Part shown: positions 5,201 to 58,849 of the stretch, piece by piece
Numbering within the stretch: position 1 is the stretch's first letter
Layout: each line of letters starts with the position of its first letter
DNA from: Leucoraja ocellata
Lineage: Eukaryota
DNA length: 64,000 nucleotides
Assembly (NCBI GenBank): GCA_036785375.1
Contig: JAWMAR010000005.1
Coordinates: forward strand, 434,001-498,000
Direction of reading: 5' to 3'
Made by a program: the position numbers and the translations under genes
Notes under the pieces: model-generated
What the model was told of the DNA's origin: nothing
Database searches by the model: none
What the model saw: only the letters and a program-made list of their open reading frames with translations

Positions 5201-8200
5201 GTATTGTTTGTCATTTCAGTGCAGAGTGAAAGAGCAAAGCTCAGGAGAAAACAAAAGAGTTTACAAATTGAGGATACATGTGCAGAACATTCATGAATAT
5301 CCAAGAGCTTTCATGCTGCCTTTTGTTTCAAATTATTTTTGTGGTCATCATCTGTTCTGATCTTTGGTTGTTATTACCCACAGGTCTAAAGGCAAACATA
5401 GTCCTGATCCAATCCCCAGGAGCTCTGGTGGTGCGTGAAGGTGAAACAGTGGAGATACGGTGTGTCCTGAACAGCACCAATGTGAATGACATTGTGAACA
5501 AATTCACCGTTCACTGGTACAACTCACGTAATGGAAAAATCAAACTTAGTCTTTCTGACGATGGCCACATTTACAGGTCACTGGGCTTCTCCGATCGATT
5601 TCAGCTTTCCAGGAACGTCACCAGTAACAGCTACTCACTGAACATTACAAAGGTGGTGATTGCCGACTCTGCTGATTACATCTGTGGCATTTGGGGGTTA
5701 ATATTTGGAAAAGGAACCAAGCTGAATGTAACCAGTGAGTATTTAAATTGGTTCTAATTCCAATCCTAACATCACGAGGAATCATGATGTCAAGTTGTCA
5801 GTTTTACAAAGACAAACATCATTAAAAGTTCACTCTGCAAAATGGAGAATGAAAATAGGTCAAAATTATTTTTTAACTGAATAATGCAGATCACTCGTTA
5901 CTGGGTTCTGAGGTCAGGATGGAGAATGTACTTCGGCATTGCCAGAGAGGTACACATAGTGTGAACAGATGAATGTAAAGAAATTACAGTATAGGTAGGC
6001 TAGTTTCTTCATTTATAATCACTTTGCTTGAGTTTACTTTATTGTCACGTATCCGAGGTACAGTGAAAAGCTTTTGTTGCCTGCTAACCAGTCAGCGGAA
6101 AGACAATACATGATTACAATCGAGCCATTCACAGTTTATGCATGGGCACTATTAGTTGGGGCACCGTCCTGTATGGTATGGCTGCCCAGCCTGCAGCTGT
6201 CCGTTTTTTAATGTTTTTTTTTATTTTTAGTTAGTTAAAGTGTTTTTGTTCTGGAGTTCTAGTCTTTTTTATATGAGGGGTGGGGGGGAATGGGGAAACT
6301 ACCTTTCAGGGTCCCTACCTGGTCGGAGAGGAAGCTTTTCTCCAGGCTGCACTGTCGACCCGTCCTCGCGGCCTACCAGCGGGCCTGGAGCGGCGTTTCC
6401 TGAGGGGACCGCCCAGAATCTCAGCTTCGGCAGCGGCACAGCGCTGGAGCACTATCGCAGAGTGGGTGATGCCTTGCCCGGGTCGCCGCACTGGAAATCC
6501 GGTAAGCTGAGGTCCGCCGATGGAGCGGCCGGAAGCGCTGAACTTTTCATCGGGAGCCTGGGATCTCTCACCGAGATCGCCAGTTGTGGAACTCCATCCG
6601 GCGCGTCCTTGTTGGTTTTGGAAGACGCGGTCTCGAGTAAGGAGGCGGCCGCTCCAGGTGTCCCATGCCGCTGAGAAGATTCTCCCGATGCCAGAGCACC
6701 ATTACCCAGCGAGAACAGCCTGGAACATTGGGCCTCCGTAGCGGCGACTGCGGAGGCCTCAATAGGCCCAACTATGGGCGGACATGGGGATGGGACTGGA
6801 CTTAGTATCTTCCCTCATAATGGAAACCATTGTGGAGGGATGTTTTTTATGTTAAATTTCTTTATTATTGTCATGTTTGTATTCTTTTTTTATGTGCTGC
6901 ATTGGCAACAAGCATTTCACTACACCTCGGTGTATGTGACTAATAAAGAAACATTTGAACCTAGTTGCACCGTCTGCCACACTGAGATCAATTACTCGAT
7001 GGTCAGCATGGGCTCAGTGAGTGAAGGACCTGTTTCCATGCTGCATCTCTACACTAAAGTAAACTAAGCATTACCACCTCAATGATCTATCTGTACTATT
7101 TCCATACCCTCTTATTCCTCCAATATACAGAGATCTGCTTATCTCTGTAGCAGCAAAGGACTAAATACACGACTAAACAAAGCTAAATGAAAAATGAAAT
7201 CCCCATTGTGAGGCAACACCTCCCAACACTGGAGGGAGAGAGAGAGAAAGAGAATGAGAGAGTGAAAGATAATCGTGAACAGGGAGAAAGTTGCAATCAG
7301 CTGCAATCATGATTTTAATATCAGTTGCTAACCAAGTTAGCATTACTTTTACATGAGGTTATCTAATGACAAAGGATGAATGTATTTTAAGTTGAAACAC
7401 ATGAAGTATTTAGCAACTCCAACATTATTGTTCATCTGTTGATATTTTCCCTTTCAAGTTGCAAATCCTCCGATCCTGATCCAATTCCCGAGGCTGGAGC
7501 GTGTCACTGAGGGTCACACGGCACGGTTACATTGCTCCATGGAGAACGCTGAAGTGGGAAACACTGACGTCCACTGGTACCGAGAACTACCCGGGCAGGA
7601 CATGGAGTGGGTTTTAACACACGAGGCAGGAGGCAGCGTACGAAGGAGACCAGGCTTCACTGAGCGGTTCCAGCCGTCCAAAGACGCCTCCAACAGCAGC
7701 TTCATCCTGAATGTCACAAACGTGGCGCTCAATGACTCTGCCGTCTATTACTGCACAGTGTGGGGAGATATCAGAGGGAATGGAACCCAGCTCAACGTAA
7801 CCAGTGAGTACGAATTATATTTGGTTTTATTAACCTATGTGTAACTATATTGGGTGTAATTCACTTCCCTTGAATTGGCACATGTACCGGGAGTACTGAA
7901 AGATTAAGGAGATCGTATTGGAGCCCTGATTCTGGAAACCAATATATTGTGGCCCCTCACTAATGGAGTGAGCACTGATATGGTAACTGATGTCAGATCT
8001 GGGTTGTGTGAAATAAATTTCAATGTGCAGTGTGTTCTTCATTGTAGAGAAAACTAGAAATAGTGTTCAGTGCTCAGTGTAATAGCAGGGCACCGCTCAC
8101 AGCTGTTTGAGTTAAGGTACAGGAGAGCAGAACAACAACTTGTCATGGCTTTAGATTAACCAATGCTGCCTCCTTATTCCAATGGTTCAATAGTTTTTTT

Positions 8201-11200
8201 ATTTGTCACATATGCAACTGGGCAGTGAAATTATTTTTGCATATATTACACATGCTGGTGGTGCCATGTTTTGGCGTCATGATCATTCGAAGTGCAACGT
8301 CCGGTCAGCCCACAGCTCGATGTACTGGAGTAGTTCCCACGAACCAAAGTCCCTCTCCTCTCCTCGCCCGGCCATCTTTGTGTCTCGGGGTGCCTCCAGC
8401 AGGCTACCTGGAGGCACTGGAGACATTTCCCTGGTTCAAACTCGCACCGGCCTTTGCTCCTTGTGTCTGACGTCTCCAGCTCACTCCCGGTCATGCCGAC
8501 CAATGATCCTTTTGACGGGTTCCCAGTCCCGCCGTCCGGCAAAACTTCGGGCTTGTTTTCAACCAGGAATCACTGATACTTGAACCACTCACATAGAAGA
8601 GGCAACAACAACAACAACAACGCTGTCACTGGATCTAAGGCCAGGCCTCTGGAACTCACTGAGAAGAAACACGTTACACGTTGATCACCTGTGTTCATGC
8701 CCTCCCTCAGGCTAACAGTTCATTGTTGTCTGGATCTGAGTCATTGCTCATCAATATTATGTTGATGCAGGCCCCTAATCCATGTTAAATAGTGTGAAGC
8801 ACGGTTGAAATTCCCCCTCAATATAATTTCCATGTTCCAGCGAAGTAGATAACTCGTTGCACCGTCGGCGGTAAAGGAAAGATAAGAATCCGACACAAAG
8901 GCAGAAGAATAGGGTCGGTGTAAGAACAGAGTCAACGTGGATGTATAAAATGGACATCATGGTTGAGAAATCTCTGAAAGTTGGTAGATGTTTGTAACTA
9001 GCAAAGTAGGGTAGAATCTATGGAGGAACTGGAATGAACAGCAGGTATCCACGCTGAGGGGCTGTGACTAGTGAGAGGTACGGTTTGGTGCTGGGACCCT
9101 CACTGTTCACAATCGAGGATGAGAAGACCAAGTATAACATATCCAGGTTAGTTGGTAGGCAAAGCAACAAGGGAGGAGGCTTCAAGGGGCACAGACAAGT
9201 ATAAAGAGCAGGACAAGTCAGATGGACTATATCTTCATTCACTTCTGCAGGTAAAATGGACGTAAAGCATTTTTTTGTATGTTGTGAGACAGTAATGTCA
9301 GAAGAATCTGGGTGTTCTCATACACAAAATAACTTAAAGTCAACATGTGGATAGAATAAGCAGTTTGGAAGGCAAACATTAAAAACAAAAGACAAAAGCT
9401 GTTGGAGTAACTTAAAAGGTCAGCCAGCAAGTCCGGAGAACATGGATAAATCTGACATCCTCGATAATCTTTCTCTACAATTATCCTGAGCCTCACTGGG
9501 AAGTATGTGATGGTATTCCAATTTTATAAACTGTTACACACCAAATGCTGGAGAAATATGATGCCTTCCATTGAACTCCATGTATATTCACACAGATCCC
9601 CTGGATGATCCGGTCCTTATCCAGTCTCCGCCAGTCAGCAAGGTGGCAGAGGGTGTAACCGTGCAGTTGCAATGTGTCTTGCACAAAGCTGGTGTGAATG
9701 ACACTGACGTCCACTGGAACCAGCAGCGACCGGGGAAAAACAGCGAGTGGATAATGAGCCACTTTGTGGATGGCAACGTCACCAGGTCTGGCTGTATCTC
9801 TGACCGCTTTAAGTCTTTCAGGAATGCCATGAGCAACAGTTACATTCTGACCATCACCAATGTCTCCATCAATGACACTGCTGTCTACAACTGCAGTGTG
9901 TGGAGTTACATCTATGGAGCAGGATCCCAGCTCAATGTAACTGGTAAGTCATTGTTTGCCTACACTGACGATAACAGCAGCTCACACTTCAACCTTCACG
10001 CAATGACTCACTGACACATGGGAATTCTGTGACCACTCCCAGTAAAACAGAGAGTGGGGAAGTTATCCTTGGCGTGTAAAGTGCAACAGCTAGGAAATAG
10101 ATAAGTGTGTGAAAGGACGAGTACAAGAGAACAAAAATCAAAAGTGTGAATAGTCTCCGCAAATGGTTTGTGGATGAAAAAGGATTTGCCTTTGGGTTTG
10201 AGCTGTCAGAGATGGAAGGTATTACCAACTAATAGCATAACATCAAATAGTCATACAGCGTGGAAACATGCCCTTCTGCCCAACTTGCCCACACCGGCCA
10301 ACATGTCCAGGTACACTAGTCCGACCTGCCTGCATTTGGCCCATATCCATCCTGAAATAAATCAGAGTAAGGAGAGAAAGAGGATCACTTCATATGTTGT
10401 TAAAAGGAATAGATTAGCTCATAAAATCCAATGGGAGAAGAAATATTATCAATTTCTTAAGAAAAAGCCAAGCTTGAGGTTATGAGTTTGAGTTTAATTT
10501 ATTGTCACGTGTACTAACATACAGTAAAAAGATTTTGTGGGCTAACTAGTCAGTGGAAAGACAATACATAATTACAATTGAGCCATCCACAGATACACGA
10601 TAAAGGGAATAACGTAAATAAAGTTTGGTGCTAGATAAAGCCAGTGATTCCAATCAAAGATAGTCCAAGGATCTCCAATGTCGATAGAAATCCCAGAGGA
10701 ACTCAGCAGAGGGACCAGGGGTTAAATGAGATGGAGGAACTGAGTGAAATCCAGGTTAGCCGGGAAGTGGTGTTAGGTAAATTGAATAGATTAAAGACCG
10801 ATAAATCCCCAGGGCCAGATAAGTTGCATCCCAGAATACTTAAGGAAGTAGCCGCAGAAATAGTGGATGCAATAGTGATAATTTTTCAAAACTCTTTAGA
10901 TTCTGGAGTAGTTCCTGAGGACTGGAGGGTAGCTAATGTAACCCCCCTTTTTAAAAAGGGAGGGAGAGAGAAAACAGGGAATTACAGACCAGTAAGTCCA
11001 ACATCGGTGGTGGGGAAATTTCTGGAGTCAGTTATTAAAGACGGGATAGCAGCACATTTGGAAAGTGGTGAATTCATTGGACAAAGTCAGCATGGATTTA
11101 TGAAAGGTAAATCATGTCTGACGAATCTTATAAAAAAAGATGGCGGATGTGCAGGAGTCGGCGCCGTCTGTGTATGGCAGCCTGTCCGCAGTCCGTCTCT

Positions 11201-14200: not shown

Positions 14201-17200
14201 CTGAACTCAGTAACATTGTTCTGGTTTAAGTATCACAAGGGCCCATTCCTGTGCTGTGCACACCTATGGCCCTAATCAAAAGGACTCCATATTGCATGCG
14301 ATAGAATGACTACTTCTTGTGTACAGCGTGCACAGCCTCACGAAACACTACATCTAGTGGTTTGTGCACGTCGGGTTGATTGCATTAGTCAAAACAGGGT
14401 GGACCACGTGAAGGTTGCATTCTCCCATCCTATAGAATGACTAAAACAATTCTTCATATTTAGTGTTAGATTCTGTGCACTCTTTAAGCATGGTTGTGCT
14501 GAGTGTTTTTTTTTTTAAGAAGACGTATTTTCCCATTAAAGTTGCAAATCCTCCGATCCTGATCCAATTCCCGAGGCTGGAGCGTGTCACTGAGGGTCAC
14601 ACAGCATGGTTATGGTGCTCCATGGAGAACGCTGAAGTGGGAAACACTGATGTCCACTGGTACCGAGAACTACCCGGGCAGGACATGGAGTGGGTTTTAA
14701 CACACGAGGCAGGAGGCAGCGTACGAAGGAGACCAGGCTTCACTGAGCGGTTCCAGCCGTTCAAAGACGTCTCCAACAGCAGCTTCATCCTGAATGTCAC
14801 AAACGTGACGCTGAATGACTCTGCCGTCTATTACTGCACAGTGTGGGGAGATATCAGAGGGAATGGAACCCAGCTCAAAGTAACCAGTGAGTACAAATTA
14901 TATTTGGTTTTATTAACCTATGTGTAACTATATTGGGTATAATTCACTTCCCTTGAGTTGGCACATGTACCGGGAGTACTGAAAGAGTAAGGAGATCGTA
15001 CTGGAGCCCTGATTCTGGAGACCAATATATTGTGGCCCCTCACTAATGGTGTGAGCACTGATATGGTAACTGATGTCAGATCTGGGTTGTGGGAAATAAA
15101 TTTAAATGTGCAGTGTGTTCTTCATTGTAGAGAAAACTAGCAACATTGTTTAGTGCTCAGTGTAATAGCAGGGTACTGCTCACAGCTGTTTGAGTTAAGG
15201 TACAGGAGAGCAGAACAACAACTTGTCATGGCTTTAGATTAACCAATGCTGCCTCCATATTCCAATGGTTCAATAGTTCTTTATTTGTCACATATGCAAC
15301 TGTGCAGTGAAATTATTTTTGCATATATTACACATGCTGGTGGTGCCATGTTTTGGCGCCTTCATTCAAAGTGCAACGTCCGGTCAGCCCACAACTCGAT
15401 GTACTGGAGTAGTTCCCACGAACCAACGTCCCTCTCCTCTCCTCGCCCGGCCATCGTTGTGTCTCGGGGTGCCTCCAGCAGACTATCTGGAGGCACTGGA
15501 GACATGTCCCTGGTTCAACCTCGCACCGGCCTTTGCTCCTTGTGTCTGACGTCTCCAGCTCACTCCCGGTCATGCCGACCGATGAGCCTTTTGACGGGTT
15601 CCCAGTCCCGCCGACCGTCAAAACTTCGGGCTTGTTTTCAACCAGGAATCACTGAGACTTGAACCACTCACAGAGCAGAGGCAACAACAACAACAACAAC
15701 GCTGTCACTGGATCCAAGGCCAGGCCTCTGGAACTGGCTGAGAAGAAACAGGTTACACGTTGATCACCTGTGTTCATGCCCTCCCTCAGGCTGACAGTTC
15801 ATTGTTGTCTGGATCTGAGTCATTGCTCATCAGCATTGCATTGATGCGGGCCCCTAATCCATGTTAAATAGTGTGAAGCACAGTTGAAATTCCCCCTCAA
15901 TATAATTTCCATGTTCCAATGAAGTAGATAACTCATTGCACCATCGGCGGTAAAGGAAAGATAAGAATCCGACACAAAGGCAGAAGAATAGGGTCGTGTA
16001 TAGAACAGAGTCAACGTGGATGTATGAAATCGACATCATGGTTGAGAAATCTTTTAAAGCTCACGTTATTAGATGTTTGTAACTAGCAAAGTAGGGTAGA
16101 AACTCTTGGAGGAACTGGAATGAACAGCAGGTATCCAAGCTGAGAGGCTGTGACTAGTGAGAGGTGGAGTAGGGTTTGGTGCTGGGACCCTCACTGTTCA
16201 CAATCGAGGATGAGGAGACCAAGTATAACATCTCGCCACGGCCCCGCCGACTATCCACCCACTGGGACCTCCCACACATCGCCGCGACCCCGACTGAACT
16301 GCCACTGGACTACGACCATCGGGTCCGCTCCACCCCCCTCCAGCAACCCACAGCCGTCGCCTTACCTGGAGCCTGGACTCTGCACTGGGCCGCAAGCCTC
16401 CACGATGCTCACTCCCTCTCTCCTGGGCTCAACTCCACTGGGTCCTAGTGCCCCTCTGCCCAGCCTTGCTAACCTCAGTGGCTGTTCCACTGACTCTCCC
16501 CCATCCCCCTCCAACTATGTTACCCCTGCGCTTCCCACCCACATTACAGCCCTCTCACCCCCCCCCCCCCAACCCCCTGACCACCCACCACCCCCCCCCA
16601 ACACCACAGCCGCCCCCCCCCCCCCCCCCCCCGACACATCGCCCCATCACCAGTCTACCCACCTGCCTTCCTCTGGTCCCAACTCCCATCCCTGCCGGGT
16701 GTTCACCATCCCCCCCGACCTCCCCCTCTCCCACACCGAACGGTCTGTCCTCAGCAGAGGTCTTACCTTTGTCCCTCTCCGTCCCCATCTCAATGAGTTC
16801 CGCGCCCACCATGACTTGGAGCACTTCTACCGTCGCCTCCGCCTCACAGCGCACTTCCATGGGAAGGAGTCCTCGTCCCCCAATCATGACCCTTTTTCCT
16901 GTCTCCAACGCACCCCCTCCTCGTGGAACCCCCCTCGTAAAGTCCCGGCTCTGGAACTCTTTATCCAGAACTGCCGCCGCGACGTCAACCACCTCAACTT
17001 CTCCACTCCCCTGTCTCACTCCAATCTCTCCCCTCTGAACGCACTGCCATTGAATCACTCCGCAAAAACCCAGATTGGGTCATCAAACCAGCCGACAAGG
17101 GAGGTGCCATGGTAGTTTGGCGCGTCGATCTCTACCAAGCTGAGGCCACGCGCCAACTCTCGGACACCTCCTCCTACTTACCCTTGGACGATGACCCCAC

Positions 17201-20200
17201 TGATGAGCACCAGGCCACCATTTCTAGCACCATCACCGACTTCATCAATTCCCACGCCCTGCCCGACCAAGCTTCCAACCTCATCGTTCCCCAGCCCCGC
17301 ACGGCCCGTTTTTACCTTCTGCTGCAGAAGGGTTTCGGCCCGAAACGTCGCCTATTTCCTTCGCTCCATAGATGCCGCTGCACCCGCTGAGTTTCTCCAG
17401 CAATTTTGTGTACCTCCAAGTATAACATATCCAGGTTACTAGGTAGGCGATGCAACATGTGAGGAGGCTGCAAGGGGCACAGACAAGTATAAAGAGCAGG
17501 ACAAGTCAGATGGACTATATCTTCATTCACTACTGGAGGAAAACTTGACATGCAAAGCATTTTTTTTTAATGTTGTGAGACTGTAATGTCAGAGGAAACT
17601 GGGTGTTCTCATACACAAAATAACTTAAAGTCAACATGTAGAAAGAATGAGCAGTTTGGAAGGACAAACATTAAAAACAAAAGGCAAAGGCTGTTGTAGT
17701 AACTTAAAAGGTCAGCCAGCAAGTCCGGAGAACATGGATAAATCTGACATCCTCGATAATCTTTCTCTTCAATTATCCTGAGTCTCACTGGGAAGTATGT
17801 GATGGTATTCCAATTTTATAAACTGTTACACACTAAATGCAGGAGAAATATGATGCCTTCCATTGAGCTCCATGTATATTCACACAGATCCCCTGTATGA
17901 TCCGGTCCTTTATCCAGTCTCCGTCAGTCAGCAAGGTGGCAGAGGGTGTAACCGTGCAGTTGCAATGTGTCTTGCACAATGCTGGTGTGAATGACACTGA
18001 CGTCCACTGGAACCAGCAGCGACCTGGGAAAAACAGCGAGTGGATAATGAGCCACTTTGTGGATGGCAACGTCACCAGGTCCGCCCGTATCTCTGACCGC
18101 TTTCAGTCTTTTAGGAATGCCATGAGCAACAGTTACATTCTGACCATCACCAATGTCTCCATCAATAACACTGCTGCCTACAACTGCAGTGTGTGGAGTT
18201 ACATCTATGGAGCAGGATCCCAGCTCAATGTAACTGGTAAGTCATTGTTTGCCTACACTGACGATAACAGCAGCTCACACTTCAACTTCACACAATGACT
18301 CACTGACACATGGAATTCTGTGACCACTCCCAGAGAGTGGGGAAGTTATCCTTGGCGTGTAAAGTGCAACAGCTAGGAAATAGATAAGTGTGTGAAAGGA
18401 CGAGTACAAGAGAACAAAAATCAAAAGTGTGAATAGTCTCCGCAAAATGGTTTGTGGATGAAAAAGGATTTGCCTTTGGGTTTGAGCTGTCAGAGATGGA
18501 AGGTATTACCAACTAATAGCATAACGTCAAATAGTCATACAGCATGGAAACATGCCCTTCTGCCCAACTTGCCCACACCGGCTAACATGTCCTGCTACAC
18601 TAGTCTTACCTGTCTGCATTTGGCCCATATCCCTCCTGAAACAAATCAGAGTAAGTAGAGAAAGAGGATCACTTCATATGTTGTTAAAAGGAATAGATTA
18701 GCTCATAAATCCAATGGGAGAAGAAATATTATCAAATTTCTTAAGAAAAAGCCAAGCTTGAGGTTATGTGTTTGAGTTTAATTTATTATCACGTGTACTA
18801 ACATACAGTAAAAAGATTTTGCAGGCTAACTAGTCAGTGGAAAGACAATACATAATTACAATTGAGCCATCCACAGATACACGATAAAGGGAATAACGTA
18901 AATAACGTTTAGTGCTAGATAAAGCCAGTGATTCCAATCAAAGATAGTCCCAAGGATCTCCAATGTAGGATAGTAGTCCCAGAGGAACTCAGCAGAGGGA
19001 CCAGGGGTTAAATGAGATGGAGGAACTGAGTGAAATCAGGTTAGCCGGGAAGTGTTGTTAGGTAAATTGAATAGATTAAAGACCGATAAATCCCAGGGCC
19101 AGATAAGTTGCATCCCAGAGTACTTAAGGAAGTAGCCGCAGAAATAGTGGATGCAATAGTGATAATTTTTCAAAACTCTTTAGATTCTGGAGTAGTTCCT
19201 GAGGACTGGAGGGTAGCTAATGTAACCCCTCTTTTTAAAAAGGGAGGAGAGAAAAACGGGAATTACAGACCAGTTAGTCTAACATCGGTGGTGGGGAAAT
19301 TTCTGGAGTCAGTTATTAAAGACGGGATAGCAGCACATTTGGAAAGTGGTGAATTCATTGGACAAAGTCAGCATGGATTTATGAAAGGTAAATCATGTCT
19401 GACGAATCTTATAAAAAAAGATGGCGGATGTGCAGGAGTGGGCGCCGTCTGTGTATGGCAACCTGTCCGCAGTCCGTCTCTTCACCTTTTATTTATTTTA
19501 AGTCCTGTTAAAAAATGTAAGTTTGTTAGTTGGAGGTATTTTATGTGGTGGGCGGGGGTGGGGAAGGGGGAAAATTTAATTTTTAGTCACCTACCTGGTC
19601 AGAGAGGCAGCATCCCTCCAAGCTGCTTCTTCGCCCAGTCCTCGCGGCCTACCATCGAGAATGGAGCGGCGTTTTCCTGTCGGGACTGGCCGGGCTACAG
19701 CTTCGACAGCGGCACAGCGCTGGGATACCAACAGATAGCGAGCGATGCCTTACCGGGTCGCCGTGCGGTAAGCTCCGGAGCGCTGTGGCCGCCGACTCCC
19801 AACATTGCAGAGCTGTGGCTGCGGGCAGCCGGCCGCTGGCGGTGCTGGATTTGGAGCACCGTGGAGCACTGAGTTCGCCGGGGTCGGAGCTCCAACCGGC
19901 GCGGCCTGAGGGCTACAAGTGCCCCGGCCTCCGGTCTCTGGGCAGGAGGCAGCAGTTCCAGAATTTCCAAGCCGCTGAGGAATGTTTCACCCGACGACAG
20001 AGTTCCATCTTCACGTCAAGAGGGCCCTGAAAATCATCGGACTGGCTGCAAGGCTACAAATGGGCCCCGACCTCGGGTGTTTCAGAGGAAGAGGACTTAA
20101 CTTTCTGGTGCCTTTCCCCACAGTGGAAATGTTTGATTGTGCTGTGGGGGGACGTTTGTGTTGAACTCTAAAATGTGTTGTGTCCATTTTCTTTATTTTT

Positions 20201-23200
20201 TTAACCTTTTTCTCTGGTTTGTATGGAAACTTATTATCTAATTTATGTAAAGCACTGGTGTCAATGCGAGTTGACTTAAAACGTGCTATATAAATAAAAC
20301 TTACTTACTTACTTATAGAATTTTTTGAGGATGTAACTAGTAGAGTGGATAAAGGAGAACCAGTGGATGTGCTATATCTGGACTTTCAGAAGGTTTTTGA
20401 CAAGGTCCTACATAAGAGATTAGTAAACAAACCTAAAGCACACGGTATTGGGGGTTCAGTATTGATGTGGATAGAGAACTGGCTGATAAACAGGAAGCAA
20501 AGTGTAGGAGTAAACGGGTCCTTTTCAGAATGGCAGGCAGTGACTAGTGGGGTACCGCAAGGCTCAGTGCTGGGAACCCAGCTATTTACAATATATATTA
20601 ATGATCTGGATGAGGGAATTGAATGCAACATCTCCAAGTTTGCGGATGACACAAAGCTGGGGGCAGTGTTAGCTGTGAGGAGGATGCTAGGAGGCTGCAA
20701 GGTGACTTGGATAGGTTGGGTGAGTGGGCAAATGCATGGCAGATGCAGTATAATGTGGATAAATGTGAGGTTATCCACTTTGGTGGCAAAAACAGGAAAG
20801 TAGACTATTATCTGAATGGTGGTCGATTAGGAAAAGGGGAGATACACCAGTCATTGAAAGTAGGAATGCAGGTGCAGCAGGCAGTGAAGAAAGCAAATGG
20901 TATGTTAGCATTCATATAAAAAGGATTTGAGTATAAGAGCAGGGAGATTCTACTGCAGTTGTACAGGGTCTTGGTGAGACCACACCTGGAGTATTGCGTA
21001 CAGTTTTGGTCTCCTAATCTGAGGAAAGACATTCTTGACATAGAGGGAGTACAGAGAAGGTTCACCAGACTGATTCCTAGGATGGCAGGACTTTCATATG
21101 AAGAAAGACTGGATAGACTCGGCTTGTACACGCTAGAATTCAGAATATTGAAGGTGGATCTTATAGTAACTTACTAAACTCCTAAGTGGTTGGACAGGCT
21201 AGATGCAGGAAGATTATTCCAGATGTTGGGGAAGTCCAGAACTAGGGGTCACAGTTTAAGGATAAGAGGGAAGTCTTTTAGGACCGAGATGAGAAAATCA
21301 TTTTTTATACAGAGAGTGGTGAATCAGTGGAATTCTCTGTCACAGAAGGTAGTTGAGGCCAGTTCATTGGCTATATTGAAGAGGGAGTTAGATGTGGCCC
21401 TTGTGGCTAAAGGGATCAGGGGTATGGAGAGAAGGCAGGGATGGGATACTGAGTTGGATAATCAGCCATGATCATATCGAATGGCGGTGGTGGCTCGAAG
21501 GGCCGAACGGCCTACTCCTGCACCTATTTTTATGTTTCTATGTTTCTATATGGAAGGTACACAAAAATGCTGGAGAAACACAGAAGGTGCAGCAGCATCT
21601 ATGGAGTGAAGAAAGGCAATGTTTCGAAACGTTGCCTATTTCCTTCGCTCCATAGATGCAGCTGCACCCGCTGAGTTCCTCCAGTATTTTTGTGTACCTT
21701 CGAGTGGAAAGACAGGTATATGTGAGAGTTTTTATTTTATGCCTTTGTTGCTTGTCAAATGCCTTCTGAAAGTCCAAATTCACATCAGCTAGTTTTCCCT
21801 TATCTGTGCTGGTAACTACAATCTCAAAAAATTAGCTGATTTGTTGAATATGATTTCCTTTACAAAAACATTTTGACTCCACCCTGCCCTGATATATTCC
21901 AAATGCCTCACTTACTTATTAATAAACTAATAATAGATTACAGCTCTTCCCTCATCCATGTTTCCCCTCATAATCTTGTGTGGCAATCTACACTCTCAAC
22001 TCATCCGTCTCACCTCCTGTGCTTCTTGCTTTAAAGTGAATGCAGCTAAACCTACCAGTCCTCTCATGCTCCCCCTCTCATCTCTGCCAATGCTTCCACT
22101 GGACTTGCCTGTTCTATTGTCTACATATGAGTCCGTTGGCATTCTGGTCCCAACCCCTTGTCTCACTAGTTTAAACTCTCTTGAGTAGCAGGAGCAAACC
22201 TCTCCACAAACCCATTCATAACTTTGTTTGGCCCCATGCACAAGTTATATAATATTGCAGGATCACTGAACTCAGTAGCATTGTTCTGGTTTAAGTATCA
22301 CAAGGGCCCATTCCTGTGCTGTGCACACCTATGGCCCGAATAAAAGGACTCCATATTGCATGCGATAGAATGACTACTTCTTGTGTACAGCGTGCACAAC
22401 CTCACGAAACACTACATCTATTTGTTTGTGCACATCGGGTTGATTGCATTAGTCGAAACAGGGTGGACCACGTGAAGGTTGCAATCTCCCATCCTATAGA
22501 ATGACTAAAACAATTCTACATATTTAGTGTTAGATTCTGTGCACTCTTTAAGCAGGGTTGTGCTGAGTGTTTTTTTTTAAGAAGACGTATTTTCCCATTA
22601 AAGATGCGAATCCTCCGATCCTGATCCAATCCCCGAGGCTGGAGCGTGTCACTGAGGGTCACACGGCACGGTTATGGTGCTCCATGGAGAACGCTGAAGT
22701 GGGAAACACTGACGTCCACTGGTACCGAGAACTACCCGGGCAGGACATGGAGTGGGTTTTAACACACGAGGCAGGAGGCAACGTACGAAGGAAACCAGGC
22801 TTCACTGAGCGGTTCCAGCCGTTCAAAGACGCCTCCAGCAGCAGCTTCATCCTGAATGTCACAAACGTGATGCTCAATGACTCTGCCGTCTATTACTGCA
22901 CAGTGTGGGGAGATATCAGAGGGAACGGAACCAAGATGATTGTCACTAGTAAGTTCAGTTTACACAATACTAAACAATCTCCGTTAGTGAAAATATAGAG
23001 CAGTTTTGCGCGTTGTGGGATAGCAGTTTTGCACGTTCATTTTTATTTCAGTTTACAATATTTACAATGTTAAAAACATTAAAAGTATTGAATCTTTTAG
23101 TTGTCATAGTCATACAGCGTGAAAACAGGCCCTTCGGCCCAACTTGCCCATACCGATTCATTTTCATGTATATATTTATGCAGGGTCGGATTTAGATGAA

Positions 23201-26200
23201 GAGAGGCCCTAAGCTATTTCACTTGTGGGACCCCCCCCCCCCCCATTCCCTGGTCCAGATGTAAGTAGGAGAAGGTGTCCGAGAGTTGGCGCATGGCCTC
23301 AGCTTTGTAGAGATCAACGCGCCAGACTACCATGGCACCTCCATTGTTGGCGGGTTTGATAACCCAGTCTGGGTTGTTGCGGAGTGAGTCGATGGCAGTA
23401 CGTTTGGGGGGGAGAGATTGGAGTGAGACAGGGGAGTGGAGAAGTTGAGGTGGTTGATGCCCCGCCTACAGTTTTGGATAACAAGGTCTAAAGCCGGAAG
23501 ATGGCCATGAGGGGGGGTCCACGAGGAGGGGGTTGGTTGGAGACGGGAAAAGGGATCATCAATAGGGGGCGAGGACTCCTTCCCATGGAAGAATGCTGTG
23601 GGGTGGAGGCGACGGTATAAGAGCTCCAAGTCGTGGTGGGCGCGGAACTCATTGAGGTGGGGACGGAGGGGGACAAAGTTAATGCCTCTGCTGAGGACTG
23701 ACCATTCGGTGTCAGAGAGCGGGAGGTCAGGGGGGATGGTGAACACACGGCAGGGATGGAGGTTGGGGCCGGAGGAAGGCAGGTGAGTGAACTGAGGCCG
23801 AGGCGATATTTGATGGGGGGGGGGGGGTCGCAGAGTATCCTCTAGTATCTTTGCCAGCCACTGAGGTTACCAGTGTTGGGGAGACTGGCACTAGGACCCA
23901 GTGCAGTCAAACCCAGGGGAGTGGGACTAGTGCAGCTGGGATATTGTTGGCCAATGTGGGCTAGTTGGGCTGAAGGGCCTGTTTCCACACTAATCACTCT
24001 ATGACTCAATGACAATTACCTGTTTTTTCATCTCTGGCCTTTATCCAACCATCTTCCTGTCAAAACCCCTCACCTGTTTTACCTATTACCTGCCATGCTT
24101 TGTCCTGCCCTTCCTCTCTTCTAGCTTTCTATCCTCCCCTCCCCCCACACACACAATCAGTCTGAAGAAAGATTCCGGCCCAAAATGTCACCTATCCATA
24201 TTCTCCAGAGATTAAGCCTGTTCCCATGCTACACTGTTCTATGTTTTATTACAGACATTCACTTTGTTCCACCCCCTGCCCTCCCCCAGGTTCCTGGCTA
24301 CTTAGACCAACCTTGTCTCTCAGACCAACTCGCCTGCTCAGTTCTGATGAAGGATTTTCAACTTGCAGAGTAGATTGTATCTCTCCCCACAGGTGCAGCC
24401 TGATCTGCTGAGTGTGTTCACAATTTTCTATTTTTATCCCAATCTGGGTAGCTTTGGAGAATGCTATGATGGGGCATCTATGATGGGGCATCAAGCAAGC
24501 CTGTGTGTTTGCTTAAAATGAGAGAAATAAACACATGTTGCAACTAAACTATAAACCTTTGATATTTTTCAGATCAAACATATGAAAAGTTGTCTTCGAA
24601 AGTCTTGGGCGGTATTGTAGCCTGTGTCCTGGTATTCGTCCTCTTATTCATCATCTTAGCAATAGCAGTGTGCTATATGAAGAAATGGGTGTGCTTCCAA
24701 CACATGTTTAAATCCGAAGGGTGAGTAAAATGTATTTCCACATCTTGCTTTAATATGATATTGAATTAAGCATGGTGGGCACGGGCGTTGAATCCAGCAA
24801 AGACCGGAGGAAAGAGTCGTAGAACATGGAAGTTTCATGGATGGAACAGTTCAGGCACAGGTGCAAAGGTGGGTTTGCTGCCTTACAGCGCCAGAGAACC
24901 GGGTTTGATTCTGACTATGGGTGCTATATGTTCAGAGTTTGTCTGTTCTCCCCCGTGACCTGCATGGGTTTGCTCGTTTCCTCATACATTCCAAAGAAGT
25001 ACAGGTTTTCAGGCCAATTGTAGGTAAAATGGTAAATTGTCCTAGTGTGTAGGATAGTGTTATTGTGCGGGAATCGCTGGTCGGCGCAGACTCGGTGGGC
25101 CGCAGGGCCTGTTTCCACACTGTATCTTAAACTAAATTAAACTAAAACTTCAGTTATGTGGAGGGACTGGAGAGGCTGGGTCCCAATGCCAGCACATCCT
25201 TCCTCAGATATAGACTGATCATAATATGCCAAACTGCTCATAATACGCCAAACACGGTCTGAGCAGTGCCTTATAAAGCCTCAGCATTACAACCTATTTT
25301 GTATTATAGCCCTCAAAGTAAATGTGAGCTTTGCATTCACCTTCCTTACTACCGATTCGACTTGCAAATTAATCTTTTGAGAATCCTGCACCAGCACTCC
25401 CAAGTCCCTTTGCACCTCTGATTTCTGAATGATCTCCCCATTTAGAAAATAAGACAATTTTATGTGATTATTGAACATCCCACCACATTGCAGACCTTTC
25501 TTTAGACTTTAGAGGTATAGTGTGGAAATAGGCCCTTCAGCCCACTAAGCCCAGTGATCACAAACACTATCCTACTCACTGGGGCCAATTTACAATTTTT
25601 ACCGAAGCCAATTAATCTGCAAACCTGTACATCTTTGGCGTGTGGGAGGAAATTGGAGCACTGGAGAAAACCCACGCAGGTCACGGGGAGAATGTACAAA
25701 CTTCGTAGAGACAGCAGCCGTAGTTAGGATTGAATTTGTGTCTCTTGCACTGTAATGCTGCAACTCTACCGCTGCGCCATTGTGTTTATTTATTTATTTA
25801 TGTATTTATTTATTTGTTTTATTTTTTTATTCATATTTTTATTAGAAGCAGTATACAAAAGTATAAACCGCGGCATATGACATAATACATTTATTGTACA
25901 GCTTCCATTTTAATTTTAACAAAGATGAAATAGAAAAAGAGAGAAAGAGCAAGAAAGAAAGAAAGTGAAAGAGAAAGTGAATATGTAAGAATAGAACCCC
26001 TGCCAAATGAGTGTAATCAAAGAGTAAGTAAAAACATTTTTTTAAAAGGAAAAAAAAACACAAAAGTGTTGATCATACCACACTCATCACCCAGTCCGTA
26101 AATCGGTTTAATTCTGAAGTTATGTTGCAACATACTATCCTTGTATTGAATCCATGAAAGGAATCCATATATTTGAAAATTGCTCTGGTTTTCCTGCTAA

Positions 26201-29200
26201 GACAAGTCTCATATCATCAAGATGTAGCATCCGCTGTGCCATTGTGGCACCACTTTTTTTTTGTCTGTGGCCGTAAAGCTAAAATGCTATAACACCACAT
26301 TTGTTTATCTTCTATTTTTATCTTTGCACCACCTGTTGTACTTGTATCTGCTTTGATTGTAATATGATTGACTGGGTAGCATGCAAATAAAACTTTTCAC
26401 TGTACCTCATTACACATAAGAACAATAAACCAATACCAATGCAGTCCCGTTGTTGTTCTTCAGAGACATTCAACAAATATAAATAGTTCACTGACAGTGT
26501 GTTCTATATCATTTCACTAGGAACTCTACTGAAGACCTGAACCCAGTTTATTCGACAGTTACAGGTAAAAACGTTAATTTCAGTACTCAAATGTTGTCTA
26601 TGTTCAGTAATGATTCCAAATGTAAGAACATAAGAAACAATCAAGGGAGTAGCCCAGTGTTGCACCATTCTCAACTTAAACTATTCAACATCTTTGGCTT
26701 TTCAATTCCTTTAAACATACTCAACAAATTAACTTCACAGTTCTCTGTCAGAGAAATATAAAGATTTAAAGCAATCTTCAAAGAAAATTCTGCACAACTT
26801 AGTCATCTTGCACTAACACCATATCTGAGTGTGGAATCCGTTGCCATGGATGGCAGTGGAGGCCATGTCATTGGGTGTTTTTAAATCAGGGATTGATAGG
26901 TTGTTGGTTAGTGAGGGTGCCAAAGGCTACAGGGAGAGGATGGGGATGAAAGCGAAATATCGATCAGCCATGATTGAATGGTGGAACAAACTTGATGGGC
27001 CAAATGCCTAAATCTGCTCCTATACCTTAGATCAATAGGAACAGTTGGAATACATATCTCCTCTCTATTAGATCTTGTATCTAAACAATCTATTCAAGCA
27101 CTCAAAGTCTCCATCTAGGCAACTAAAATAGAGTTTTGGTTGATATTTTGGGTCATGATCATAGTGAGCAGATAGCCAACTGAAAGAGGTGAAGGGGAGG
27201 TGTGAGGCAGGACAGGCAGTAATAGATAGAAACAGATGAAGCGAGGAAAGAGGGGCAGATGAGCCAAGTGGGGGAGCAGATGGTTGGAATAGAGGCTGAA
27301 AGCTAATGTGGAAAGAAGAGATGCTGGAATCCTACAGAAGGTGACATGCGGAAACAATGGTTCAAAAGTGCTTTTATTGTCACATTTGCGAAGTGCTAAC
27401 AATGAAATTATTTTTCATACAAACAGTCCAGTAGAATATTGCTATACTCCGATCCCTAATTATAGCAATTGTACAGAAATAGTCTACTGGGCCCGCATGC
27501 AAGAGGCACCATCTAATAGTGCTATTTTAAAAGTCCTCGCTCTAGTTCTTATGAGAAGTGCCTGTTCCAGTCAAATCCCAGGCTGTTGCAGATCTCCAGC
27601 CATTTCCTTCCTTCAACACCACGCTACCTTATCAGATTCCAGCATCTGCAGTCTCTTGTGTCCCTAAAATAGAGAGCAGCCTGCCACCAAGTACTGCTGC
27701 CTCTGCCCTCCTCCACTAAATGGACACACCATCAGTCTTAAACAAATTATTGGATATATATCAATTCCTGCGGCCAATCAAAAGATGCCTGCTGTAAGTG
27801 ACAAATTAATGGCAGAATTTAGAAAAACCAACATTAACACAGACTCTCAAATTTCAATCCATTTGATAGTGGCTGAATTTAAACCTATGATAGTGAACTA
27901 AAGGGTATATGTCCATGAATTAATTAAATTATAATCCTTTACATTCAATTGAGAAGTTTCCGGATCCACCAACTAAAAGGCAACTTCTGCAATACTGCAC
28001 TGAAGCATAGGCCTACACAGTTTGGCTTAACTCCCTAAAGAGGGCCTGATCCACAGCCTGCGGACTCCAGAAGTAAACCGGACGTCTAGCCTTTAAGACA
28101 TATGTGAGTCTTGTCATGCCTCTGTCAAGAGTGAGAAACTCTTCATACATATGACAGCACGATGGCGCTGTTGTGTTGTTGTCTTACAGCACCAGCGATC
28201 TGGGTTCAATCCTGACTACGGGTGCTGTCTGTACGGAGATTGTGCATTCTCCCTGTGACCGTGTGGGTTTTTCCCAAATGTTCTGGTTTCCTCCCACACT
28301 TCAAAGATGTACAGGTTTGTCCCTAGAATGTGGAACAGCATCCCTCTTCTCATCAGAACTGCCCCTCCATCTTCTCATCAGAACTGCCCCTCCTTTCTTG
28401 ACGTCCTCTGAGTGAGGGCTATATGTATTTATGTATGTACGTACCAATATTGTATAACGTTAGTACCTCCACCAATGTAAAGCACTTTGGCCAACGAGAG
28501 TTGTTTTTTAATTGTGCTATAGAAATAAAGTGACTTGACTTGACTTGACTAGTGTACGGGGATTGCTGGCCGGCGTATACTTACATAGAAACATAGAAAA
28601 TAGGTGCAGGTGTAGGCCATTCGGCTCTTCGAGCCTACACCACCATTCAATATGATCATGACTGATCATCCAACTCAGTATCCTGTACCTGCCTTCTCTC
28701 TTGGTGGCTGAAGGGCCTGTTTACACGCTGTATGTCTAAACTAAACATATGTGTTCTGCAGAATGTTGCAGCTATCTGAATGCAGTGGATAAGGGATGAC
28801 AATAAGTTTGTATACCGCACTATGATTTCATTTTGATTCTCACCCGTATGTGACAACTCAACAGATTCTTATTTTATTTCAGTTGAAACCAAGACCAATA
28901 CAGAACCGGCCCCCAATGTCACTATGGTAAGTACCAGACATAAATACAAACTACTGGAGCAACTCGGTGGGTCAGGCAGCATCTGCGGAAAGAAATGGAC
29001 AGGCGACATTTTGGCCCATGCTTTAATTGAATGCCATCACTTCCTTTTTAGACCTATACAAGCCATCTCAGGTTTACAAATGTCCACCTTACACTCTTAC
29101 ATATGAACAAGCTTCCATAAATATCATTATATTCAAAGTCTTACGTACATACAACACGTTCATTCCTGTGACTAGTGATGTGTCACAGGGTTCTGTGCTG

Positions 29201-30483
29201 GGCCCGTTACTGCTTGTCATGTACAGCAATGATTTGGATGAGAACATACAGGGCAAGATTAGCAAGTTTGCTGATGATACAAAAGTTAGTGGTTTTGCAG
29301 ATAGTGAAGATGGTTGTGAAAGATTGCAGCAGGATCTGGATCGATTGGCCATGTGGGCGGAAGAATGGTTGATGGAATTTAATACAGAGAAGTGTGAGGT
29401 GTTGCATTTTGGGACGTCGAACTAGGGTAGGACCTACACAGAAAATGGTAGGCCTCTGGGTAGTGTTGTAGAGCAAAGGGATCTAGGAGTACAAGTGAAT
29501 GGTGCCATAAATGTTGAGTTGCAGGTAGATAAGGTGATCAAAACAACTATTGTCACTTTGGCCTTCATCAGAGAGATTATTGAGCATAGAACTTGGGAGG
29601 TCATGTTGCAGTCAAGACGTTGGTGAGACCGCATTTGGAATATTGTGTTCAGTTCTGGGCACCATGTTATAGGAAAGATGTTGTCAAGGTTGAAAGTGTT
29701 CAGAAAAGATTAACAAGGATGTTGCCAGGACTAGAGGGTGCGAGCTATAGGGAGAGGTTGAGTAGCCTGGGTCCCTATTCCATGGAGCATAGGAGGATGA
29801 GCGGAGATCTTGTAGAGGTATATAAAATCATGAGTGGAATAGATCGGGTAGATCCACCATCTTTTACCCAAAGTAGGGGAATTGCGGACCAGAGGACATA
29901 GGTTCAGGTTGAAGGGGAAACGATTTAATAGGAATCCAAGGGGTAACTTTTTCATACAGAGGGTGGTGAGTGTATGGAACAAGCTGCCAGAGGAGGTAGT
30001 TGAGGCTGGGACTATCCCATTGTTTAAGAAACAGTTGGACAGGTACATGGATAGGACAGGTTTGGATGGTTATGGACCAAGGGCAGGCAAGTGGGACTCG
30101 GGTAGATGGGACATTGTTGGCTGGTGTGGGTGAGTTGGGCAAAAGGGCCTGTTTCCACACTGTATTACTCTATGCTTATAACTAGTTTGCTCTTTTTTCC
30201 CCTTTTGGTAAATGTTCTTTCTTGTTCATCTTATATGTTTTTGATGCCATTCATTATAAACTGTGATGGAATGGCGTGATTTTGCATATTTTCTGACTGA
30301 TGGACAAAATCGGCTTATAGATTCAGCATTCTCTTGTGTCATTTACATTTTGCTTTTCTATTGCAGTCGGCGGAACCGGAGATACTCTATGCTGATATTC
30401 AGTTTGTACGACAGAATGCCAAAGCTCCAACCTTAGAAGTCAGCGAGGAGACAACTGAATATGCTGCCATCAAACGTACATAA
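5137..30483 (+). CDS. Multi-exon gene for a non-rearranging tandem VJ-type Ig-domain inhibitory receptor (L-V1-V2-V3-V4-[V5]-V6-TM-cytoplasmic tail with ITIM+ITSM)
   Basis: Manual splice assembly: exons 5137-5200, 5384-5734, 7459-7803, 9596-9943, 14542-14886, [17888-18236], 22604-22948, 24573-24720, 26521-26564, 28883-28926, 30367-30483. All introns are GT-AG, with phases 1,1,1,1,1,1,1,2,1,0. Excluding V5 the CDS is 2151 nt (716 aa + stop). Confidence 0.9.
5384..5734 (+). CDS. V1 exon: V-set Ig domain with germline-joined J motif ([17 protein letters not shown])
   Basis: Acceptor acccacag|, donor A|GTGAGT. Shows B-strand Cys (EIRC), VHWY, DSADYIC and canonical FGxGTKL. Confidence 0.93.
6150..6960 (+). 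mobile_element. Non-autonomous retroelement, GC-rich head homologous to 11133-12035, with a Rex/Babar-like tail
   Basis: Shares CCTACCTGGTC.GAGAGG...GTCCTCGCGGCCTACCA...GGCACAGCGCTGG with ~11310-11445. It ends TTTCACTACACCTCGGTGTATGTGACTAATAAA. Confidence 0.65.
7459..7803 (+). CDS. V2 exon (type B): VJ-type Ig domain ([17 protein letters not shown])
   Basis: Acceptor ccctttcaag|, donor A|GTGAGT, 345 nt, phase 1-1. Motifs [26 protein letters not shown], GxGT. Confidence 0.92.
9596..9943 (+). CDS. V3 exon (type C): VJ-type Ig domain ([17 protein letters not shown])
   Basis: Acceptor ttcacacag|, donor G|GTAAGT, 348 nt, phase 1-1. Motifs [26 protein letters not shown]. Confidence 0.92.
10690..13265 (+). 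mobile_element. 5'-truncated CR1 LINE in the V3-V4 intron, interrupted by an insertion at 11133-12035
   Basis: RT motifs [32 protein letters not shown], and a CR1 3' UTR. Confidence 0.9.
11133..12035 (+). mobile_element. Non-autonomous retroelement with GC-rich head and L2-like tail (duplicate at ~19413-20312)
   Basis: Interrupts the CR1 ORF and is flanked by a CTTATA duplication (11127-11132, 12036-12041). It ends GTAAAGCAC...GCTATATAAATAAA(ACTT)n. Confidence 0.75.
14542..14886 (+). CDS. V4 exon (type B, duplicate or hybrid of V2 and V6)
   Basis: Acceptor cccattaaag|, donor A|GTGAGT, 345 nt, 11 substitutions versus V2 by manual alignment, open frame. Confidence 0.88.
16232..17415 (+). mobile_element. 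Internally deleted Penelope-like element inserted only in duplicate unit 2
   Basis: 13-bp TSD CCAAGTATAACAT (16219-16231, 17416-17428); the empty site is at ~9128-9140 in unit 1. PLE ORF motifs [17 protein letters not shown] and PRTARFYLL are fused to the terminal repeat. Confidence 0.88.
17888..18236 (+). pseudogene. V5 exon (type C, copy of V3) with a +1 frameshift as assembled; pseudo-exon or consensus error
   Basis: 349 nt versus 348 for V3. GTCCTTTATC replaces GTCCTTATC near 17909-17911, so the spliced frame reaches TGA at 17992-17994. Splice sites are intact. The DxAxYxC motif is changed to NTAAYNC. Confidence 0.8.
18975..21548 (+). mobile_element. Duplicated copy of the same CR1 LINE and its insert, in the V5-V6 intron
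   Basis: Collinear with 10690-13265. Confidence 0.9.
22604..22948 (+). CDS. V6 exon (type B, membrane-proximal; [17 protein letters not shown])
   Basis: Acceptor cccattaaag|, donor A|GTAAGT, 345 nt, phase 1-1, open frame. Confidence 0.9.
23255..23930 (-). mobile_element. Penelope-like element ORF fragment
   Basis: ORF 23327-23746 is homologous to ~16700-17170. Confidence 0.8.
24573..24720 (+). CDS. Transmembrane exon [49 protein letters not shown](G)
   Basis: Acceptor atttttcag|, donor GG|GTGAGT (phase 2). A 26-residue uncharged hydrophobic run is followed by a KK stop-transfer. Absent from the ORF track. Confidence 0.9.
26521..26564 (+). CDS. Cytoplasmic exon 1 (G)[14 protein letters not shown] with a YxxV motif
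   Basis: Acceptor atttcactag|, donor CAG|GTAAAA, 44 nt, phase 2 to 1, which fits both neighbouring exons. Confidence 0.8.
28883..28926 (+). CDS. Cytoplasmic exon 2 (V)[14 protein letters not shown]
   Basis: Acceptor attttatttcag|, donor ATG|GTAAGT, 44 nt, phase 1 to 0. Confidence 0.8.
29160..30175 (+). mobile_element. Decayed CR1 3' fragment in the last intron
   Basis: [29 protein letters not shown]. Confidence 0.88.
30367..30483 (+). CDS. Terminal coding exon [38 protein letters not shown] (ITIM + ITSM)
   Basis: Long polypyrimidine tract then ttgcag|, phase 0. ILYADI matches (I/V/L/S)xYxx(I/L/V) and TEYAAI matches TxYxx(I/V). Stop is TAA followed by TGA. Confidence 0.9.
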   Translation, partial: SAEPEILYADIQFVRQNAKAPTLEVSEETTEYAAIKRT

Positions 30484-57946: not shown

Positions 57947-57995
57947 ATGTTTTCACTGATATTCTCCACCTTGAGTCTGTTCCTCTGTGCAGTGG
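57947..57995 (+). CDS. Probable leader exon of a second membrane or secreted protein gene, MFSLIFSTLSLFLCAV
   Basis: ATG with A at -3, 16 hydrophobic codons + 1 nt, donor G|GTAAGT (phase 1), in non-repeat DNA just downstream of ETS/C-EBP-like motifs. The rest of the gene was not identified in the window. Confidence 0.55.
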
Positions 57996-58849
57996 GTAAG
58001 TAAAGTCCCAAGATGGGTCGCCCAGTCTGGGTTAGTTTCATCTGCTTTCAAGTTCAATTTACATATTGCAGTGATGTGTATCTAAGGTTTTACAGTTGAA
58101 TATTTCAGTTTAAAATTGAGATGTTTTGTGTTCTTAGTTGCCTGTGAGAAGGACACTGAAGTGTACTGCTCTGGGATTCCTAGCAAGAATGGATATCAAT
58201 TTGTTTCACTGCTTTACTAATCAAGGTTTAGAAGTCATCTGAGGCTGATTCATATCTGAGCAAATTATTTGGCTAAAATATCAGAAGATAGGAAAACATG
58301 TACATTCGCAACCCATATGTAAAATAAATGCATTAAACAAATGCAAGAAAGAGTGGAGATTAAACAGGCAGATGTAATGGAGGGAACAAAAGTAATGAGA
58401 TATGTGAAGGGGATATAATAACAGGAAGAGTGTTTATTTTTCATATGTGGTGGAAGTGGACTGGAGCAATTAAATTCTTACTTACTGGCTTTAGGCACAT
58501 TAATCTGTGCGGAGTTTATACATTCGCTGTGTGACCATGTGGGAGTGTTTTGGTTTCTTCCTACATCCCCAAAAAAACACGTTTGTACATTAATTGGCTT
58601 TGGTAAAATTGTAAATTGTCTCTAGTGTGTATGGGGTGATTACTGGTTGGCGTGTACTCAGTGGGCCAAAGGGGTTGGTTCCACGCTGTATCTCTATAGT
58701 AAATATTAGTCCGAACAGCAACAACAAGTGTGCCATAACTTATTTAACTAAACTAGATGATGATAAAGCATTATCAAAGTATGTGGAGTAACCACAGTCG
58801 TGCAAGGTCTGTTCAGTGGTGAGAAGGGTTGTGGTTAGAGTGTACAAAT

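Follow-up and report, generated by a model that had tools for sequence, protein, structure and literature searches.

A likely immune ‘off switch’ of the skate from a little-studied chondrichthyan receptor family with outer domains most like an antibody light chain

Cytoplasmic tails that combine an ITIM with an ITSM occur in 14 listed human receptors, eight of which carry the pair 23–26 residues apart and three of which (SIRP-alpha, Siglec-5 and Siglec-11) have a spacing of exactly 24, represented in SIRP-alpha by its first pair, Y429/Y453 (PMC8631942, supplement 4). The accessible text of the same study accounts for the conserved ITIM-ITSM spacing by bivalent binding of tandem SH2 domains and links Ala at pY+1 to SHP1 recruitment (PMC8631942). 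SIRP is described as built of three Ig domains and its activating form SIRPB as using a lysine in the transmembrane segment (TM) (PMC12678352). The PD-1 motifs are given as (I/V)(D/E)YG(E/V)LxF and (T/V)EYATIx(F/Y) in a source that describes skate PD-1 separately (PMC12151841). Paired receptors of the CEACAM1/CEACAM3 type comprise inhibitory and activating members with similar ectodomains (PMC5112662). Among relatives of the antigen receptors, UrIg and UrIg2 are presented as pre-RAG candidates (PMC12227049), and the accessible part of an earlier study reports that the skate type I light chain is entirely germline-joined and that a rejoined Ig gene could become a novel receptor, for which it knew no direct example yet (PMC2193156).

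The window analysed here comprises 64,000 nucleotides of repeat-rich, skate-like DNA and corresponds to C5:434001-498000 of its contig (C5). It contains most of one receptor gene and the first exon of its next paralogue (window positions unless marked C5):

C5:413135-413185, leader exon, ca. 21 kb upstream of the window start
5384..5734, + strand, V1 exon, single-exon VJ-type, membrane-distal, hypervariable
7459..7803, + strand, V2 exon, V2 type
9596..9943, + strand, V3 exon, V3 type
14542..14886, + strand, V4 exon, V2 type, 95% identical to V2
17888..18236, + strand, V5 exon, V3 type, 349 nt
22604..22948, + strand, V6 exon, V2 type, membrane-proximal
24573..24720, + strand, exon for a short stalk, an uncharged TM and the juxtamembrane segment
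26521..26564, + strand, cytoplasmic exon 1 with PVYSTV
28883..28926, + strand, cytoplasmic exon 2, spacer
30367..30483, + strand, last coding exon with ITIM ILYADI, ITSM TEYAAI and stop
57947..57997, + strand, leader exon of the next paralogue

All six V exons in the window are recognised as V-set by Pfam. Judged by its identity to V2, V4 is an apparent product of recent internal duplication, and the V2/V3 units together with their introns were tandemly duplicated recently (window ca. 7400-22950, 94–96% DNA identity). The number of V domains varies among paralogues and species. The intergenic space is filled by long LINE-like (endonuclease/RT) and tyrosine-recombinase-retrotransposon-like open reading frames, labels that reflect our own reading (examples at window 45327-48117 and 32071-35400, both on the minus strand).

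The TM exon, the two 44-nt exons and the last exon have AG/GT ends and matching phases throughout, and they yield a single open tail that reads PVYSTV, ILYADI and TEYAAI, the tyrosines of the latter two lying 24 residues apart and the final one 6–7 residues before the stop. A first-pass annotation, made from the sequence alone, had reported this spacing, an upstream PVYSTV and a TM devoid of charged residues; all three are borne out by the canonical, phase-consistent exons, PVYSTV being encoded by cytoplasmic exon 1 and the uncharged TM by exon 24573-24720. Both motifs agree with the consensus forms (S/I/V/L)xYxx(I/V/L) for the ITIM and TxYxx(V/I) for the ITSM, are conserved and follow the TM. 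When the 82-residue tail was shuffled 100,000 times, an ITIM followed by an ITSM at a distance of 18–35 residues appeared in 0.043% of the cases and at 23–26 residues in 0.009%. The little skate RefSeq protein P0036 has a splice pattern and tail identical in kind to those of the window gene, and V6 is 91% identical to a little skate protein. In addition, an 894-nt contig from a run of a related organism (X1) connects TM exon and last exon without loss of the frame; it spans 78 nt between them versus 90 expected, and the run is labelled ‘RNA? probably DNA’.

A search with V6 returned 94 family proteins from 282 candidates, 93 with elasmobranch names and one without a species name. Pooling three protein searches gave 101 family proteins, of which 33 possess the TM/tail type of this gene (type A). 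Conservation across elasmobranch homologues had been set beforehand as the check on the motifs, and it turned out clearly positive: both tyrosines are retained in 31 of the 33 type-A homologues from 17 species, the remaining two terminating before the motifs. The tyrosine spacing is 24 in 23 and 23 in eight of these proteins, and a second tail type has 24 in 8/8 matches. Over the 17 species the YAD and YA columns are invariant, and the spacer between them varies. Deviations comprise Thr at ITIM +3 in three sawshark proteins, Met at ITIM -2 in several homologues and a missing ITSM Thr in two. The upstream PVYSTV tyrosine, kept in 13/17 species, is probably secondary because it is lost in 4/17. 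The pooled pN/pS values, which are built on non-independent pairs, amount to 2.3 for V1, 0.73 for V2 and 0.37 for the tail exon, whose copies on C5 and on the parallel contig C76 (94–98% identity; assumed to be the second haplotype of C5) are identical; by these measures the tail is under apparent purifying selection. Outside the family the tail exon produced only a weak Pfam match to DUF4578 (E 0.07) and no match in the PDB at E up to 10, and a word-based tail search, a method too insensitive to exclude SIRP, found 16 proteins, all from elasmobranchs. In the sharks, P0003, P0021, P0074, P0085 and P0064 pair a TM belonging to one tail type with an ITAM-like end belonging to a different one, which suggests exon shuffling or alternative splicing between inhibitory and activating tails; these proteins could also be annotation chimeras. 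Two bamboo shark proteins (P0182, P0278) have one V domain, no evident TM and two YANY/YANF motifs.

The integrity of this particular copy deserves separate consideration. On C5, a short T run in V5 is one T too long, which shifts the frame, and this reflects either an assembly error or a null or skipped exon allele. Exon bins had near-zero depth in three repeat-swamped raw-read runs of another species, and the four contig runs of a second transcript search (4/4) gave no match; neither result is informative on expression. Together with the frameshift they could be taken to indicate a decaying pseudogene which keeps its motifs merely through recent duplication. However, V5 is intact on C76, its skipping preserves the frame, the splice sites are intact in every copy read and the tail has the purifying signature described above. 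We consider decay very unlikely.

The match of the tyrosine spacing to the first pair of SIRP-alpha raises the question of an elasmobranch SIRP-alpha orthologue or close relative, i.e. a CD47-type ‘self’ sensor minus the C1 domains. Such a relationship could also draw on four homologues named ‘tyrosine-protein phosphatase non-receptor type substrate 1-like’ by NCBI (P0004, P0020, P0023, P0142), on the J-like end of the SIRP V domain, and on the GULO/CHRNA2 region, which we take to be paralogous to the PDYN-SIRP region. The automatic names are, however, arbitrary, as IgSF3-, pIgR-, perlecan- and ROBO1-like are also given. Two of the three Ig domains of SIRP are of C1 type, whereas the window gene has six V-set exons and its cluster no C1 exon, Pfam detecting C1 only with a weak score inside a V domain; the V+C1+C1 layout of SIRP is thus not found. 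The tail contains one ITIM+ITSM pair plus a variable upstream tyrosine, compared with four tyrosines (429, 453, 470, 496) in SIRP-alpha, and activating members of the family bear intrinsic ITAM-like tails in place of a SIRPB-type TM lysine and DAP12, an internal TM charge being present in 0/78 family TMs found. SIRP is presumably linked to NSFL1C; in this contig-level assembly the SEP-domain genes reside on C667, C904 and C14, not on C5 or C76, and no Ig exon was found within 200 kb around the NSFL1C-like gene on C667. The V domains, moreover, are nearest to type I light chains (see below). SIRP is absent among the top-listed matches of the sequence and fold searches, which as top matches only do not exclude it, and the V-domain trees contained no SIRP sequences. 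Taken together, SIRP orthology appears highly improbable and, as far as the sequence allows, the skate gene is not a SIRP.

The first-pass annotation was right about the spacing of 24 in SIRP-alpha, as the Y429/Y453 pair documents, and went too far in reading a specific SIRP-alpha resemblance from it. Because eight of the 14 human receptors have a spacing of 23–26, three of them exactly 24, this distance marks a shared phosphatase-docking geometry and not a family, and the likeness to SIRP-alpha is generic. A pair 23–26 residues apart near the C-terminus is common to the skate tail and SIRP-alpha, Siglec-5/-9/-11, PD-1, BTLA, PECAM1 and G6b-B, and Ala at pY+1 is found in BTLA, SIRP-alpha and Siglec-9 as well. 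The skate family differs from these receptors in its ectodomain of one to eight VJ-only domains and in a tail homology detected in elasmobranchs only. PD-1 itself, with a spacing of 25, was rejected as an identity, the six V domains and the sequences LYADIQF and TEYAAIKR contrasting with its single V domain and Ser/Thr stalk. Likewise, a single-V member of the CD28 family was ruled out by comparison with the description available in PMC11599192.

Contig C5 carries six family genes within the stretches read, C5:548-860 kb being outside these. Two are ITIM+ITSM genes, the second being the next paralogue at C5:515-537 kb with four V domains and the same tail; three combine an uncharged TM and a YEN exon with a YxxL-x7-YxxL/I motif to which two exons contribute; and one is a long-stalk gene without tail tyrosine. 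The last (C5:871899-897415, orthologue P0052) consists of two V domains, a single-exon N-rich stalk of ca. 1,900 residues and a TM. The ITIM+ITSM and the YxxL-x7-YxxL/I genes possess near-identical ectodomains, and the ITAM-like tail is carried by 20 database proteins. Linked genes, similar ectodomains and opposing tail motifs correspond to a paired family as in the CEACAM1/CEACAM3 type, and the two kinds of paralogues would presumably act in opposite directions. An intrinsic ITAM tail is also known from fish NILT. The V domains of NILT and MDIR are described as TREM/CD300-like (PMC3031540), and these published descriptions suggest a difference from the skate family with its two-Cys V domains, J-like strand end and Ig-light-chain-like character; no match named MDIR was among the results of the three family protein searches. 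To the left, the cluster is flanked by an alpha2/4-type nAChR gene, GULO-type exons, NDK, a coiled-coil gene and a B7-like gene. The GULO-type exons (FAD_binding_4, ALO), the NDK exon and the nAChR gene map to C5 163-253 kb, and the B7/butyrophilin-like V+C gene (L060:2039-4530; best PDB matches CD276 and B7-H4) to C5 ca. 122-124 kb, i.e. ca. 140 kb from the first cluster gene; it is a candidate ligand. A flank scan of 400 kb, in which 150 of 258 candidate exons were compared with Pfam, identified no gene on the right flank.

The copies of V1 are closely similar except for variable sites that cluster at CDR-like positions. In two C5/C76 pairs, with C76 taken as the other haplotype, V1 shows 50 nonsynonymous and five synonymous changes (Fisher p=0.002; p=0.078 and 0.007 for the pairs singly). 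The annotation had proposed ‘self-recognition’, for which we find no support; the ITAM-like paralogues and the diversifying V1 fit better with a paired-receptor arms race. Another conceivable function is that of an adhesion-checkpoint receptor which, like PECAM-1 or MPZL1, binds homophilically or to a host ligand and acts via SHP-2, with V1 variation serving kin recognition or allorecognition. The atlas look-alikes, the TIGIT-like, MPZL1, BTLA and G6b clusters, are compatible with such a role, and the B7-like gene could supply its ligand. Near-identical ectodomains on ITAM-like paralogues and the excess of amino acid changes in V1 are, however, typical of pathogen-driven pairs, so that we regard the adhesion function as unlikely compared with the arms race.

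With a probability of roughly 0.8, the locus encodes a poly-V receptor of a chondrichthyan paired family whose conserved ITIM+ITSM tail is likely inhibitory and likely recruits SHP-1/SHP-2. The phosphatase-recruiting receptor of the first-pass annotation gains from the conserved pair and from an Ala at pY+1 that fits SHP1, and the recruitment itself we infer as likely by analogy with the human receptors (PMC8631942). Mechanistically, a ligand would bind to the membrane-distal V1, projected from the cell by a variable number of glycosylated V spacers, and a Src-family kinase would phosphorylate the ITIM and ITSM tyrosines. The tandem SH2 domains of SHP-1 and/or SHP-2 might then dock bivalently, N-SH2 on the Ala+1 ITIM and C-SH2 on the ITSM, and the docked phosphatase would damp activating signals. 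In the ITSM of the skate tail the aromatic residue that PD-1 conserves at +5 is missing, which counts against this proposal. The ITAM-like paralogues would signal via Syk/ZAP-70 and might serve as counter-receptors to pathogens taking advantage of the inhibitory form.

Outside the family, the nearest V domain of the genome belongs to a germline-joined VJ on C94 that has a CL exon; this VJ is 83% identical to the little skate ‘type I immunoglobulin light chain’ and, used reciprocally as query, returns the receptor family at 46–51%. Mean identity between 41 family V domains and 12 type I (sigma-cart) V domains is 43%, versus 24–31% for other Ig/TCR V groups and 36% between type I and type II light chains, and 47 consensus columns are common to the family and type I, versus 17–31 for the other groups. 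With type I (sigma-cart/sigma-2/NS5) light chains the family shares the G-L-x-A exon start, the CxVW start of CDR3 and a phase-1 end after a J-like strand. It differs in lacking a CL exon and RSS, in its tandem V domains, TM and signalling tail, in a 7-residue Cys-to-GxG loop in 40/41 family domains versus mostly 9–12 residues in the light chains, and in location, as type I genes are on other contigs and CL exons at C94 and C230, none being in the receptor cluster. A CACAGTG after Cys2 in the V2-type exons was discarded as an RSS, as it is coding (T-V) and has no nonamer; an octamer was found upstream of neither family nor type I leaders and is uninformative as a test. The predicted V2 model (pLDDT 94.7) matches antibody, nanobody and TCR V domains in fold, the best with Z 19.2 and rmsd 1.4 over 111 aligned residues. 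A profile search of 1.84 billion representatives, ranked by best domain, returned the family followed by type I light chains and a coelacanth light chain; family-type matches among the 30 looked up were from elasmobranchs, Callorhinchus or without name, and no bony-vertebrate family member was among the best 150 matches. A close kinship between the family and sigma-cart is well supported by sequence comparison.

The direction of descent is less clear. Trees were calculated for five taxon sets, each with an alignment of 95 columns; the root moves when the sampling changes, the outgroups are imperfect (two are TCR-alpha-like V-C1 genes), and genomic V rows other than type I light chain are labelled by our reading of motifs. 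A split uniting the family with type I received 550, 942, 358 and 0 of 1000 bootstraps in four trees, the value of 942 after removal of long branches, and in one tree the two form an open fork. When the TCR-gamma rows are omitted, the family comes to include the outgroup and all rearranging V domains form a group of their own in 968/1000. In no case did an AU test reject a position of the family outside the rearranging V (p = 0.27, 0.26, 0.31 and 0.11). Family and type I stay adjacent in the trees, and the family may be either a co-opted rejoined VJ or a relic of the unsplit VJ. We lean towards co-option for two reasons: type I is nearer to the family than to the other light chains, and the family is seemingly restricted to chondrichthyans, where germline joining is common. 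The corresponding scenario, in which TM and ITIM/ITAM exons acquired a RAG-joined germline sigma-cart VJ exon before holocephalans and elasmobranchs diverged, is tentative and has somewhat less than an even chance; the opposite one, in which the family is a remnant of the undivided VJ gene into which the RAG transposon inserted, we consider rather improbable. Co-option, if true, would provide a direct example of the proposal of Lee et al. 2000 that a rejoined Ig gene gives rise to a new non-rearranging receptor. UrIg/UrIg2 are likewise non-rearranging single-exon VJ genes of elasmobranchs related to antigen receptors, and by its description UrIg is secreted, of VJ-C1-C1-C1 layout and linked to the MHC or the AgR complex (PMC12227049), which sets it apart from the transmembrane, V-only, paired skate family located beside GULO; ‘ITIM’ and ‘SIRP’ do not occur in the main text of that paper. 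Non-rearranging single-exon VJ + C1 + TM genes with an EIPPP CDR3 at C175:1140515-1142392 and 1200277-1202269 have their best PDB matches in TCR-alpha and constitute a separate VJ-C1 family.

Members of the receptor family are present in RefSeq under inconsistent automatic names, and a literature search yielded no description of it, most subscription immunogenetics papers, which could mention it, being outside its reach. The ITIM+ITSM pair is itself ordinary; what is unusual is the gene family, a polymorphic cluster of inhibitory and activating receptors that spans sharks, rays and chimaera and whose ectodomain comes closer to an Ig light chain than any other non-rearranging sequence of this analysis. 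It bears on the old question of whether single-exon VJ genes are relics of pre-RAG receptors or products of germline joining, and its members are candidate NK or myeloid checkpoint receptors in cartilaginous fish.
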